Source: Schmidtea polychroa (Eukaryota). Taken from it: a stretch of 60,000 nucleotides of DNA. Position 1 is the stretch's first letter. Each line of letters starts with the position of its first letter. Both the position numbers and the translations under genes were made by a program. Under the pieces are notes generated by a model that was not told the origin of the DNA, did not search any database, and worked only from the letters and a program-made list of their open reading frames with translations. The DNA lies in assembly GCA_044892525.1 (NCBI GenBank), contig CM097885.1:22880001-22940000 (forward strand), in the 5' to 3' direction. Shown here one piece after another: positions 18,199-41,438 of this stretch.

Positions 18199-19901
18199 AG
18201 TAGATGGATTGGGCACCGCTGGCACAGGGCACCGCTAGCACAGTACCCCCCCTCCCCCCCCTCCCCCCCGTCGGTAAGATTTTCAAAAATATTCTAAGTC
18301 TAAAAGTACATTTTTTTTTCAAGGTCAAATTTAAACAAAGACATATGACTCATCAAGGTCATTGAAACAAAGACCATGAGTCATCCTATGACTCATAAAA
18401 TTTTTCAAGGTCATTTAAACAAAGACCATGACTCATCCGATGACTCATCAAGGTCATTTTCAAGGTCATATGACTCATAATATGACTCATCAAGGTCAAA
18501 AAAATTTTCTCGAGGTCATTTAAACAAAGACCATGACTCATCAAGGTCATTTTCAAGGTCATATGACTCATGGTATGACTCATCAAGGTCATTTTCAAGG
18601 TCGTATGACTCATAGTATGACTCATTTGACCTTGAAAATTTTTTCAAGGTCATATGACTCATAATATGACTCATCAAGGGCATTTTCAAGGTCATATGAC
18701 TCATAGTATGACTCATTTGACCTTGAAAATTTTTTTTCAAGGTCATATGACTCATCCTATGCCTCATCAAGGTCATTTTCAAGGTCATATGACTCATAGT
18801 ATGACTCATTTGACCTTGAGAAATTTTTTCAAGGTCATATGACTCATCTTATGACTCATCAAGGTCATTCTCAAGGTCATATGACTCATCCGATGACTCA
18901 TCAAAATTTTCAAGGTCATTTTCAAGGTCATCTGAGTCATCCTATGACTCATCAAGGTCATTTTCAAGGTCACATGACTCATCCAAGGTCATTCCCAAGG
19001 TCATATGAGTCATCGCGATGACTCATCAAGGTCATATTATTATTTTTAAAAAATATTATTATTTTTATTATTATTTTTAAAAATATTATTATTTTATTTT
19101 TAATTTTTTCAAAGTTCCCGCCAACGAAAATTAATAATCGATAGCTCATTTTAAAGCTCAATCCAAGACCTTTCGAATGAGCCATATATCTTATTATTAT
19201 TATTATTATTATTATTATTATTATTATTATTATTATTATTATTATTATTATTATTATTATTATTATTATTATTATTATTATTATTATTATTATTATTATT
19301 ATTATTATTATTATTATTATTATTATTATTATTATTATTATTATTATTAGTATTAATCTATATACACCGAGTCTATATACTCTGAGTCTATCCGACAAAA
19401 TATTTTGTCCCCCTATGGGTAATGCTCACAAGGGTACTGGTCACGCTCAACAAATCAACAAAACATACATTTATTTAAACAATAAAATAATGTAAAATTA
19501 ACAAAGGTAAACTAAATATTGATGCACTTCTATTCGCAGCATTATTGTTAGAAATTGGTAACGTTGAATTGATTTTCAGATATTCTATTGATCCTTTGAT
19601 TGTTTGAATTTCTCTTAATAATAATTCAATCTTTTTTAACAAATAATCATGCTTCTTATCAATAATCTTCATATTCTTTTTATTTTCAGTAATAGAGTTA
19701 TTGAAAACCTCAATATGATCAATCAATTTAATTTTTATATTTTGTATATATTCAAATGTTAGTTCATAACTGTTTTCTAAATTCTCCAATCTTTGAGATA
19801 TTCTTTTTCCTGGATGCTTTGACCATTTTGGTTTGTCGAGAATATATAAAATATCCATCAACTTGGCTGTATTCGGACAAACACATATTGATTTATTAAA
19901 A
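18199..19901 (+). repeat. Left terminal inverted repeat (1703 bp)
   Basis: Reverse complement of 39885-41438; differs mainly in ATT tract length, one extra ~51 bp repeat block and homopolymer lengths. Confidence 0.95.
18318..19035. promoter_or_regulatory. Subterminal array of ATGACTCAT (AP-1/bZIP) and TCAAGGTCA (NR5A/FTZ-F1/ERR) motifs; putative enhancer
   Basis: Manual count of about 28 TGA[C/G]TCA and about 27 YCAAGGTCA in ~715 bp, plus several AACAAAG; mirrored in the right TIR. Regulatory function is inferred. Confidence 0.6.
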
Positions 19902-19975
19902 GACTCCACTGTTATTGTTGTATTGTGTGAGCACACACTCGTTATAATAATTAGCAATATGAATAGAGTTTTCAT
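19475..19975 (-). CDS. Secreted/surface coiled-coil protein with signal peptide and GPI-type hydrophobic tail (166 aa)
   Basis: MKTLFILLIIITSVCS signal-like N-terminus, heptad-rich middle, C-terminal NNAANRSASIFSLPLLILHYFIV; mostly inside the TIR. Confidence 0.75.
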   Translation of the reverse strand: MKTLFILLIIITSVCSHNTTITVESFNKSICVCPNTAKLMDILYILDKPKWSKHPGKRISQRLENLENSYELTFEYIQNIKIKLIDHIEVFNNSITENKKNMKIIDKKHDYLLKKIELLLREIQTIKGSIEYLKINSTLPISNNNAANRSASIFSLPLLILHYFIV

Positions 19976-20080
19976 GGTGTATCAAATCAAAACCTTTCTT
20001 TTACATTTATAGTCTATCAACCAATCAAAATCATCCGGTATTAGTATAAATAAAACATCATATTTTAAATTATTGTAAAA

Positions 20081-20601
20081 ATGTCTCAATTTATGGAAAA
20101 TCTTTTAAGAGAACTCGTCAACAGGAATATTATGGAAAGCCTATGTTTCCTGGTCGATCGGACCGAAAAGATTATAGAAGGTAATCACATTGATTATGAC
20201 GATGTGATCAATTCTGATTGTCTCGAAACCAAAAAATTCTATTTTAATAGAATTTTTAACTGTCTATGCGACGATCAGATGAAGTGGACCCGAATACTAG
20301 TAGGGTTCGCTTATATGAAAATAATAATCCAAAGAAGTCTATGGGACTCAGAGCACTATTATCAGTGGTCTCAAGAAGTAATACTTTTATAATTTATATT
20401 TTATTAATATTTATTTTCTAGATAATCAAGTCAAAGTTTCAACCATGGATTGAAGCCAATGGCGGATGGGGAGTACTCAATCAACTCGCCAGAAATGCAA
20501 AAGAAATAGACGATCAGAAAAGAAAATTTAAAAACTATGTAAAACTTGCAACAGGTGTTGCTATTTTGTATATTTTAACCAGATTTTTAAATAAAAATTA
20601 A
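20081..20601 (+). CDS. Bcl-2 family protein, 2 exons (20081-20377, 20422-20601), 158 aa
   Basis: BH1-like FNCLCDDQMKWTRILVGFAY; after a 44-bp phase-0 GT-AG intron, BH2 PWIEANGGW and a C-terminal TM anchor LATGVAILYILTRFL preceded by basic residues. Confidence 0.88.
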
Positions 20602-39338: not shown

Positions 39339-39879
39339 ATAGAAAAAACTTTATATTTTTGATTCATAAAAACTTGTATAGTGATTTCATGATTTATAAA
39401 AAATTGTATAGAAACTTTTATTTAAAAACTTGTACAAAAACCTGTATATTGTATAAAACTTGTATTTATATATACATATTCAATAAAATTTTTAATCAGA
39501 TTTTTTAAGTATTTGGTGTTTTATTATAATTTTTTTATATTTAATGGTGATTTTTATATAGTCTGCAGTGAGCATGCAGCTATATGTTTTATATAGTCTG
39601 CAGTGGGCATGCAGCTATATCAATGAAATAATAATAATAATAATATTAATAATATTAATATTAATAATAATAATAATAATAATAATAATAATAATAATAA
39701 TAATAATAATAATAATAATAATAATAATAATAATAATAATATTAATAATATTAATAATAATAATAATAATAATAATAATAATAATAATAATAATAATAAA
39801 ACTTTAAACAGGTTGCAAAGGGTACTAGTCATGCTTATTATTGTTATACATTTGATGGTTACATTTTGAAAGCTCTATT

Positions 39880-40311
39880 TTGATTTTTAATAAATCAATA
39901 TGTGTTTGTCCGAATACAGCCAAGTTGATGGATATTTTATATATTCTCGATAAACCAAAATGGTCAAAGCATCCAGGAAAAAGAATATCTCAAAGATTGG
40001 AGAATTTAGAAAACAGTTATGAACTAACATTTGAATATATACAAAATATAAAAATTAAATTGATTGATCATATTGAGGTTTTCAATAACTCTATTACTGA
40101 AAATAAAAAGAATATGAAGATTATTGATAAGAAGCATGATTATTTGTTAAAAAAGATTGAATTATTATTAAGAGAAATTCAAACAATCAAAGGATCAATA
40201 GAATATCTAAAAATCAATTCAACGTTACCAATTTCTAACAATAATGCTGCGAATAGAAGTGCATCAATATTTAGTTTACCTTTGTTAATTTTACATTATT
40301 TTATTGTTTAA
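39880..40311 (+). pseudogene. 5'-truncated TIR copy of the coiled-coil/GPI-type gene
   Basis: Protein identical to 19475-19975 from FNKS onward but lacks the signal peptide; the ORF opens on TTG. Confidence 0.7.
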
Positions 40312-41438
40312 ATAAATGTATGTTTTGTTGATTTGTTGAGCGTGACCAGTACCCTTGTGAGCATTACCCATAGGGGGACAAAATATTTTGTCGGATAGAC
40401 TCAGAGTATATAGACTCGGTGTATATAGATTAATACTAATAATAATAATAATAATAATAATAATAATAATAATAATAATAATAATAATAATAAGATATAT
40501 GGCTCATTCGAAAGGTCTTGGATTGAGCTTTAAAATGAGCTATCGATTATTAATTTTCGTTGGCGGGAACTTTGAAAAAATTAAAAATAAAATAATAATA
40601 TTTTTAAAAATAATAATAAAAATAATAATATTTTTTAAAAATAATAATATGACCTTGATGAGTCATCGCGATGACTCATATGACCTTGGGAATGACCTTG
40701 GATGAGTCATGTGACCTTGAAAATGACCTTGATGAGTCATAGGATGACTCAGATGACCTTGAAAATGACCTTGAAAATTTTGATGAGTCATCGGATGAGT
40801 CATATGACCTTGAGAATGACCTTGATGAGTCATAAGATGAGTCATATGACCTTGAAAAAAATTTCTCAAGGTCAAATGAGTCATACTATGAGTCATATGA
40901 CCTTGAAAATGACTTTGATGAGTCATACTATGAGTCATGTGACCTTGAAAATGCCCTTGATGAGTCATATTATGAGTCATATGGCCTTGAAAAAAATTTT
41001 TCAAGGTCAAATGAGTCATACTATGAGTCATACGACCTTGAAAATGACCTTGATGAGTCATACCATGAGTCATATGACCTTGAAAATGACCTTGATGAGA
41101 CATGGTCTTTGTTTAAATGACCTTGAGAAAATTTTTTTGACCTTGATGAGTCATATTGTGAGTCATATGACCTTGAAAATGACCTTGATGAGTCATCGGA
41201 TGAGTCATGGTCTTTGTTTAAATGACCTTGAAAAATTTTATGAGTCATAGGATGACTCATGGTCTTTGTTTCAATGACCTTGATGAGTCATATGTCTTTG
41301 TTTAAATTTGACCTTGAAAAAAAATGTACTTTTAGACTTAGAATATTTTTGAAAATCTTACCGACGGGGGGGAGGGGGGAGGGGGGGGGGGTACTGTGCT
41401 AGCGGTGCCCTGTGCCAGCGGTGCCCAATCCATCTACT
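39885..41438 (-). repeat. Right terminal inverted repeat (1554 bp)
   Basis: Reverse complement of 18199-19901. Confidence 0.95.

Follow-up and report, generated by a model that had tools for sequence, protein, structure and literature searches.

An apparently recent Maverick insertion in Schmidtea polychroa with a truncated TBP and two apparent promoter classes

We analysed a window of 60,000 nucleotides from Schmidtea polychroa (GenBank assembly GCA_044892525.1, contig CM097885.1, positions 22,880,001 to 22,940,000 of the forward strand). The window contains a Maverick/Polinton element of 23,240 bp (18199-41438 of the window), both ends of which begin with AGTAG. It has features that define this group, namely terminal inverted repeats (TIRs), a 6-bp target-site duplication (TSD), an ATPase together with an adenain protease, a family B DNA polymerase (PolB) with exonuclease and palm motifs, and an rve integrase with its DDE residues. 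Judged from its sequence, the insertion is apparently recent, its core genes are open (two of them only with predicted introns spliced), and the genes apparently fall into two promoter classes. The ends and the insertion site are as follows.

18193..18198, plus strand: left TSD, CATATT, confirmed by the empty paralogous site.
18199..19901, plus strand: left TIR, 1,703 nt.
39885..41438, minus strand: right TIR, 1,554 nt, with 26 AP-1-type and 22 NR5A-type sites.
41439..41444, plus strand: right TSD, CATATT.
46889..46894, minus strand: paralogous target site without an insertion, in another copy of the host repeat, with the same junction and a single CATATT.

The element is carried by a dispersed host repeat (17465-18198 and 41439-42366), and an inverted copy of this repeat lies about 5 kb to the right without the insertion (46110-47888). 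Because the inverted copy has the same junction with one CATATT, the TSD is real, and it is as perfect as a first-pass annotation of the window had stated. The flanks of the empty site are 94.8–96.2% identical to those of the element in three of four aligned blocks and 89.2% identical in the fourth. The TIRs, which had been called nearly identical, differ at 9 of 1,549 aligned nt; the two innermost blocks, 976 nt together, account for 2 of these. Indels are present as well, among them a microsatellite of 102 nt and a difference of 51 nt in repeat units. The insertion looks young, because the TIR mismatches are few compared with the 4–5% divergence of the host-repeat copies (three of four blocks; 11% in one). 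Aligned with those of three relatives (L008, L014 and L035), the core genes have no stop and no gap longer than 11 residues in the aligned parts, and their catalytic motifs agree with those of relatives. The core open reading frames (ORFs) are open, as claimed, provided that the predicted integrase and protease introns are spliced, and the description of the copy as young and core-intact is supported on condition that the integrase intron is removed.

In a sequence-run search, at least 20 of the 24 listed matches contain part of 19900-28330 and 6 contain half or more; no RNA is among the matches listed, and the search was not used for expression. Close variants of three proteins were found, namely a TBP cluster of 6 (whose five full-length members share 141–144 of the 145 residues), 12 of the basic protein and 5 of the ATPase. 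These variants are consistent with a multi-copy family and give no copy count.

The gene that carries our main argument encodes a TBP of 145 residues, hereinafter designated mini-TBP, and it adjoins the core genes. Homologue counts below refer to 81 loci with mini-TBP relatives.

22451..22888, minus strand: mini-TBP, 145 aa (Pfam TBP 1.6e-15; model pLDDT 95.5; Foldseek TBP E 9e-9).
22988..23614, plus strand: packaging ATPase (Pfam Pox_A32 3.6e-7, motifs); ATAAAC box at −32.
23633..24166, plus strand: basic protein with a C-terminus that we take to be pX-like (homologues in 9 of 81 loci); box at −32.
24170..24397, plus strand: small MG...SCC protein, whose frame overlaps the start of the integrase (5 of 81 loci have homologues, 5 of 5 with the box upstream).
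24228..25334, plus strand: rve integrase with chromodomain (Pfam rve 1.2e-5, catalytic motifs).
25331..26335, plus strand: putative minor capsid protein (penton), 334 aa, from position and homology (12 of 81 loci); box at −70.
26328..26693, plus strand: conserved small protein before the major capsid gene, presumably PW/protein-VI-like (homologues in 6 of 81 loci); box at −100.
26690..27913, plus strand: putative major capsid protein (MCP), 407 aa (homologues in 12 of 81 loci); box at −41.
27914..28325, plus strand: adenain-type protease (Pfam Peptidase_C5 4.6e-6); no box.
35343..39338, plus strand: DNA polymerase B of the protein-primed type, 1,331 aa; vOTU Cys/His, exonuclease and palm motifs are present, as is an endonuclease-VII-like insert.

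The earlier label of a TBP-like gene is borne out by the Pfam match, the predicted fold and the Foldseek matches. The model of mini-TBP is a two-lobed saddle with TM 0.73 and rmsd 4.7 to human TBP, and all top matches are TBPs. Specifically, it has no helix of four or more residues before residue 81, N-lobe helices H1 and H2 are lost, and the C-lobe stirrup EPELF is kept; the H2 regulatory surface of eukaryotic TBP is thus missing from the model. Among 109 relatives found in one search, F38 is conserved in 102, F97 in 108, F113 in 108, E93 in 104 and E95 in 107, which gives the family the intercalating Phe and the TFIIB stirrup of TBPs. The DNA-contacting Phe and Asn positions are conserved among the relatives, but the first N-lobe position has no conserved Phe. 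E93 and E95 match E284 and E286 of human TBP. According to PMC7221094, E284 and E286 bind TFIIB, and N-lobe H2 binds TFIIA, TAF1, Mot1 and Brf1. The relatives often lie beside Maverick core genes, with an ATPase in 27 of the 81 loci, an integrase in 17, an MCP in 12 and an adjoining single-stranded DNA-binding protein (SSB) gene in 20, and the order of the morphogenesis cassette is conserved across relatives.

The structural genes form one packed cassette of eight genes on one strand (22988-28325), as the first-pass annotation had described. The rve score of the integrase is below the curated cut-off; its D, D and E motifs are kept, and the frame needs the predicted intron to be spliced. The small MG...SCC protein is likely lipidated. 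The MCP and the penton are putative assignments, made by size, position and homology to ORFs at the same position, and neither has a Pfam, PHROG or PDB match of note (the MCP profile gave nothing against PDB). Two penton-like genes stand in tandem in the relative L014. The ATPase had no match in the phage collection, and single-sequence viral scans gave no match. The vOTU, exonuclease and palm motifs of the polymerase are common to L008, L014, L060 and L089. The names given to these motifs follow in part 10.1101/2023.08.22.554363. The polymerase has no Pfam or PDB polymerase match, as is also stated for the PolB of Beta adintoviruses (PMC8502044); because a PF03175 match is absent and the Cys/His motifs are present, it shows one trait of that group (OTU-PolB divergent from pfam03175).

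Two promoter classes can be told apart. In the first, the surface, Bcl-2, SSB and TBP genes have a canonical TATA at −34 to −41. Four of the left-end genes have a CCAAT at −50 to −90, and each of the six has at least one of CCAAT, TATA and ATAAAC in the 120 nt upstream. The CCAAT and TATA-like elements reported earlier for the left end are therefore present, and TATA is well placed, but presence alone is uninformative, since 28% of random 150-nt windows hold CCAAT and 36% hold TATAWA. For this reason only elements at promoter positions (TATA at −34 to −41) are counted. CCAAT is not enriched across the element (2.4 per kb, against 3.1 and 2.2 in the flanks). A scan for bacterial promoters was set aside as not applicable.

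In the second class, an ATAAAC box lies within 120 nt of the ATG of seven of the eight cassette genes (all except the protease) and of the acidic and SUMO-interacting-motif (SIM)-like genes. The box is found at none of the seven other genes (surface, Bcl-2, SSB, ORF 21963..22376, TBP, ORF575 and polymerase). Box counts in relatives were made on loci L001-L081 after removal of upstream regions at least 75% alike. In TBP-bearing loci the box precedes 60 of 68 structural genes and 8 of 73 TBP/SSB genes, compared with 6.4% of random windows (Fisher p 6e-22, although the loci are kin). By gene, the counts are 21/23 for the ATPase, 9/10 for MCP, 10/11 for penton, 6/6 for the PW-like protein, 4/4 for the MG protein, 6/8 for the basic protein and 4/6 for the protease; the integrase, which is outside this sum, has the box in 9 of 15. 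Before the ATPase the box stands at −60 to −22 in 21 of 23, with a background of 2%.

The boxes that lie in coding regions are fixed at synonymous sites, which argues for constraint on the DNA. Specifically, aligned ATPases end in TAT AAA CA in 19 of 19 cases, against 41% of Y-K pairs elsewhere, and in alignments of the box lineage the I-N pair at the penton site is written ATA AAC in 8 of 8, against 14% elsewhere (identical rows included in both counts). L091, where no TBP is seen, has ATT AAT at the penton site. On the ATPase tree, the box spans three deep clades with 35–77% identity; one clade has the variant CATAAAC, and the C after ATAAA is invariant. The box is absent before seven of seven ATPases of loci without a TBP match, all of them partial contigs; L087 (a near-duplicate of L086) and L082-L084 (weak ATPase match and no other core gene) were left out of this control. 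These two promoter classes support the early/late split proposed in the first-pass annotation, more strongly than it was first claimed. Its comparison with an adenovirus layout is not supported, because each late gene has its own box. Adenoviruses use a single major late promoter.

All seven ATPase matches in a bacterial genome collection (L089-L095) look like eukaryotic Maverick contigs mis-binned into metagenome-assembled genomes (MAGs). In one such Maverick-like contig, a TBP gene (Pfam 2.3e-18) is immediately followed by a TFIIB-like gene (TFIIB 6.8e-7, Zn ribbon 2.9e-6; L093:4714-5828); this pair, which comes with no ATAAAC box, may be a second way for Mavericks to carry basal factors. 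In another Maverick, a PC4 gene (3.6e-21) adjoins a divergent TBP-like gene (L078:1302-2730).

Short introns of host style had been suspected in at least five genes, and nine GT-AG segments are predicted in six; the flanks yielded no identifiable host intron for comparison. They are AT-rich and 37–50 nt long, except for the 93-nt segment of the integrase. A tenth possible intron of 60 nt lies at the 5' end of the polymerase, with a candidate extra 5' exon at 35199-35220. The protease intron (27946-27982, 37 nt) has the same place and phase in L008 and L014, at about 50% protein identity, and is absent from more distant proteases whose starts are covered. The integrase segment (24616-24708) consists of (ATT)n with GT-AG ends, adjoins the second catalytic Asp, and has an 8-nt direct repeat at both edges. 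Among homologous proteins 119 of 120 lack it, and so do 21 of 21 loci. It has the look of an intron gained recently from a microsatellite. Introns are known to arise at duplicated AG|GT sites. Just upstream of their conserved domain, 12 of 20 SSB relatives (L003, L007, L008, L009, L018 and others) also have a short AT-rich segment of GT-AG type, so that introns appear to be a trait of the lineage. Introners are known in dinoflagellate Maverick-like proviruses (PMC11957031). The predicted core-gene introns, one old and one apparently just gained, mean that screens based on ORFs will wrongly call such elements dead.

Left of the mini-TBP gene and right of the cassette lie the remaining genes and a largely non-coding middle.

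19475..19975, minus strand: surface protein ORF, 166 aa, with hydrophobic N- and C-termini, a coiled-coil-like middle and five N-glycosylation sequons.
20081..20601, plus strand: Bcl-2-like gene of two exons, with predicted intron 20378-20421 (44 nt) and a hydrophobic tail.
20685..21056, minus strand: acidic protein, with predicted intron 20996-21040 (45 nt) and an ATAAAC box at −37.
21192..21602, minus strand: SSB-like OB-fold protein, 136 aa (model pLDDT 91.6; homologues in 20 of 81 loci).
21963..22376, minus strand: ORF without a family match, with predicted intron 22277-22324 (48 nt) and three CCAAT boxes upstream.
28822..29500, plus strand: SIM-like acidic gene of five mini-exons, with predicted introns 28874-28923, 28987-29035, 29105-29153 and 29250-29292.
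29501..32768, no strand: non-coding stretch of 3.3 kb with degenerate repeats, a 27/35-nt tandem array and a duplication of about 570 nt (83% identity).
32769..34496, minus strand: orphan low-complexity ORF575, 575 aa, head-to-head with the polymerase (chance openness about 1e-19).
34676..35023, plus strand: six palindrome-rich repeat copies before the polymerase, with two more after it at 39564 and 39599.

The 166-aa ORF is predicted to be a secreted or glycosylphosphatidylinositol (GPI)-anchored surface protein; its matches are sub-threshold coiled-coil matches, and it has no relative in the 81 loci. The TIR includes 427 nt of its 3' part, which are repeated in the right TIR without the signal peptide. 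The TIR has grown into this gene (19475-19901 and 39885-40311), and the right copy is an open frame of 127 aa. The Bcl-2 claim stands in that both exons are collinear with the family, but the match is weak: Pfam gives E 0.01 (profile 12-67) and 0.34 (86-100), and the top PDB matches are Bcl-2 family members for each exon, in order, at E 0.14 and 0.074, all below cut-off. The SSB-like claim is supported by the predicted OB fold and a moderate structural match. The top four of 48,161 chains are ASFV CP312R (Z 7.3, rmsd 4.3, 123 aligned), DUF2815 (7.2), Enc34 SSB (6.8) and T7 gp2.5 (6.8), and the next scores 5.4; Z below 8 may reflect a common arrangement. The SSB has no sequence match, its atlas search was empty, and Foldseek gave nothing with E<0.001.

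The surface and acidic proteins are present as ORFs, as reported, but no homologue was found for them, nor for the SIM-like gene, the 575-aa gene and ORF 21963..22376. Specifically, the acidic protein has no family match of note, ORF 21963..22376 has no match by Pfam or PHROG or in the 81 loci, and ORF575 has none by Pfam, PHROG or the 81 loci, no homologue for residues 1-125 and no LxCxE motif. Exons 3 and 4 of the SIM-like gene are a tandem duplication that includes introns, with DDDVVFIG motifs that we take to be SIMs. Two SIM-like motifs (EVIVISKDE and EVIVINDE) in the N-terminal linker of the polymerase (35772-35888) echo this gene. The 5.8-kb stretch at 29.5-35.3 kb, which the first-pass annotation had not pointed out, consists of tandem duplications and contains ORF575, and the duplications in its 3.3-kb non-coding part are 78–89% identical; a nested foreign transposon there was rejected, because no transposase or reverse transcriptase ORF is present and flank matches are microsatellites only. 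Rfam gave no match, 29501..32768 included. Gasdermin and PLA2 have no match in this element. The accessory set, earlier called unusual, is carried by this copy but is not unique: mini-TBP is in 81 loci, SSB is beside it in 20, and PMC8502044 already names Bcl2 and TBP for adintoviruses/MELD viruses. Elsewhere, accessory genes are swapped for ubiquitin-conjugating E2, dual-specificity phosphatase, RING fingers, KilA-N and PLA2 (L014, L003, L035, L052 and L060).

Outside the element, the window holds an intronless MFS transporter gene (11412-12866, Pfam 3.9e-27), possibly a host gene or a retrocopy, TPR-like and LRRFIP-like fragments (14140-14463 and 47908-48252) that are apparently pseudogenes or pieces carried by repeats, and an A-rich tandem array of 18–19-nt units (44855-45690).

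The TIRs contain dense motif arrays, one of which is given here.

18300..19040, no strand: TIR motif array, candidate enhancer, with 28 TGA[CG]TCA (AP-1-type) and 25 TCAAGGTCA (NR5A/ERR-type).

We take TGA[CG]TCA to be the AP-1 consensus and TCAAGGTCA to be the NR5A/ERR (nuclear-receptor-type) consensus. Dinucleotide shuffles of this 740-nt array give 0.27 and 0.04 of the two motifs, the interior of the element has 3 and 0, and each flank has 1 and 0. Because tandem amplification of a single unit explains the count, an enhancer role is only a candidate one. Such arrays were not found in the loci of relatives (at most 5 and 2 sites), few of which reach a terminus.

On balance, we slightly favour a model in which mini-TBP reads a private (T/C)ATAAAC box and thereby turns on the genes for packaging, integration and the putative capsid. 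The early genes (mini-TBP, SSB, Bcl-2 and surface protein) would be driven from the CCAAT/TATA promoters together with host factors of the AP-1 and nuclear-receptor types that act at the TIR arrays. Mini-TBP would recruit host TFIIB through the kept stirrup glutamates and, because its N-lobe helices are gone, might escape control by TFIIA, TAF1 and Mot1. It would then start RNA polymerase II (Pol II) at each box, giving overlapping late transcripts; host splicing would complete the integrase and protease messages, which would imply a nuclear cycle, and Bcl-2 may delay cell death during genome copying and possibly packaging.

Several observations weigh against this model. In the element itself, the protease lacks the box, and the acidic and SIM-like genes have it. 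Among relatives, 5 of 55 TBP genes and 3 of 18 SSB genes also have a box within 120 nt. The loci were chosen by TBP and are kin, and box and TBP are confounded with ancestry because the box/TBP label needs only 1–3 changes on the ATPase tree. The seven control contigs are partial, so that TBP absence is not proven there, and in L078 and L093, whose TBP-like proteins are more divergent, the ATPase, integrase and MCP genes lack an upstream box. TATAAAC is one base off a canonical TATA box, and ATAAACA is a Forkhead-type site. Other points bear on the copy as a working virus: the capsid candidates have no profile or sequence match to jelly-roll capsid proteins, the SIM-like gene has no clean 3' end, and the integrase, if unspliced, has 31 extra residues beside its active site.

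An explanation that we regard as possible but unlikely is that a host factor reads the box (a Forkhead protein, or the host's own TBP acting on replicated genomes) and that mini-TBP is a decoy for TFIIB or a blocker of host or early promoters. The invariant C after ATAAA and the CATAAAC form depart from host TATA, even though TATAAAC itself is near the canonical box and ATAAACA fits the Forkhead consensus. The kept TFIIB stirrup and the lost N-lobe helices would suit a dominant negative as well as an activator, and the TBP-like genes without a box in L078 and L093 fit a decoy; against this, the DNA-contacting Phe and Asn positions are conserved, and TBP promoters are rarely boxed (2 of 55 at −60 to −22), as expected of an activator made before its targets.

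It is rather improbable, in our judgement, that this young copy is already defective or dependent on other copies, with the integrase insert an unspliced microsatellite lesion and the SIM-like gene and 29.5-35.3 kb in decay; such a defect would not exclude the activator model for the lineage. The near-absence of the insert from homologues suits a lesion, but gene finders blind to introns would under-report introns in homologue sets, and the insert has GT-AG ends, a T-rich acceptor like those of the other eight introns and the duplicated AG|GT site. The SIM-like gene does enter sequence resembling an untranslated region, where no acceptor gives a longer frame, and the 3.3 kb of non-coding sequence, the duplications and the TIR indels also suit decay, whereas the other core genes have no stops or large gaps relative to relatives. 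We think it very improbable that the lineage is a transposon confined to the cell, or that it resembles a virophage and has its late box read by a large virus infecting the same cell: no vertebrate Maverick particles had been seen and activation by giant viruses was proposed (PMC8097293), and TBP-like folds are common in large DNA viruses, but the spliceosomal introns predicted for core genes and the CCAAT/TATA promoters of host type imply transcription by Pol II in the nucleus, the cassette order is conserved across relatives, and the element supplies its own TBP.

Returning to the activator model, we tentatively entertain a wider picture, one that we would sooner expect to fail in some part than to hold whole, in which such elements are widespread small endogenous DNA viruses with a herpesvirus-like cascade, built from a regulation-proof TBP of 145 residues, a private late box and AP-1/nuclear-receptor enhancers at the ends. 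In that case this copy would be a provirus that lies latent, can be induced and forms particles, and no orthogonal factor recognising promoters for host Pol II would be known that is smaller than mini-TBP. The picture addresses the question of whether the Mavericks of animals are genuine viruses that run a timed programme of infection, and the late box with its matching TBP predicts the late transcript starts, the controlling gene and the triggering host signals (AP-1 and nuclear receptors). In planarians, Polintons are known to be targeted by piRNAs, and their repression is lifted in the course of differentiation (PMC8532177).

A young, intact Maverick that has a Bcl-2 gene is ordinary; the noteworthy parts are the mini-TBP and late box found across the lineage, the predicted introns of core genes and the motif arrays of the TIRs. 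We found no account of a truncated Maverick TBP or an ATAAAC box in the literature covered, with subscription journals, Repbase, figures and part of the Starrett supplement outside its scope, and the available text of 10.1101/2024.03.25.586562 names no TBP or Bcl. Vertebrate Mavericks/Polintons (PMC8097293) share the TIRs, the 6-bp TSD, the protein-primed PolB, the ATPase, integrase and protease, the int-mCP-PW-MCP-pro order and a size range (12.7–24.6 kb) that includes this element. They differ in that intact ones are reported intronless, whereas core-gene introns are predicted here, and in a maximum TIR of 1,447 bp, compared with 1.55–1.7 kb; all core genes here are on one strand, and the available text mentions no TBP or late box. 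Beta adintoviruses (PMC8502044) share the OTU-bearing PolB without a pfam03175 match, the FtsK-type ATPase, adenain, rve integrase, a pX-like protein and Bcl2 homologues, and TBP is named in the Fig. 5 legend for MELD viruses; promoter classes, TBP truncation and introns do not appear in the available text.

Adenoviruses (PMC11071308) share a linear genome with inverted terminal repeats, protein-primed PolB, adenain, splicing and a Bcl-2-like early gene near the left end. In contrast, this element has an integrase and a TSD, keeps the vOTU Cys/His residues, has the terminal-protein region fused and has a box for each late gene, and so departs from the Adenoviridae, which lack an integrase, have an inactive vOTU and a terminal protein of its own gene, and use one major late promoter.

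Cellular and large-DNA-virus TBPs (PMC7221094) have the same saddle fold, intercalating Phe and C-lobe stirrup; mini-TBP is about 35 residues shorter and has lost N-lobe H1/H2. In most viral TBPs the positions that bind TFIIB are variable, and the virus supplies a TFIIB of its own (PMC7221094), whereas the mini-TBP family keeps both Glu, and no TFIIB gene is among the element's ORFs. The closest functional likeness is to the vPIC, the viral pre-initiation complex of beta- and gamma-herpesviruses, in which a viral TBP-like protein (ORF24/BcRF1/UL87) works with a modified TATA box before each late gene, the TATT box about 30 bp upstream (PMC6541308). The herpesvirus protein binds Pol II directly within a six-member complex (PMC6541308), whereas that of the element is a 145-aa TBP core with a TFIIB stirrup; neither a Pol II-binding domain nor families of the five partners are among the element's ORFs. 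By analogy, this suggests a herpesvirus-like private late-transcription switch that works alike without being a member of that system, and the resemblance is likely convergent. If so, the viral-TBP strategy of herpesviruses would have been invented independently in a 23-kb genome, and mini-TBP would offer transcription biochemistry a natural minimal TBP.

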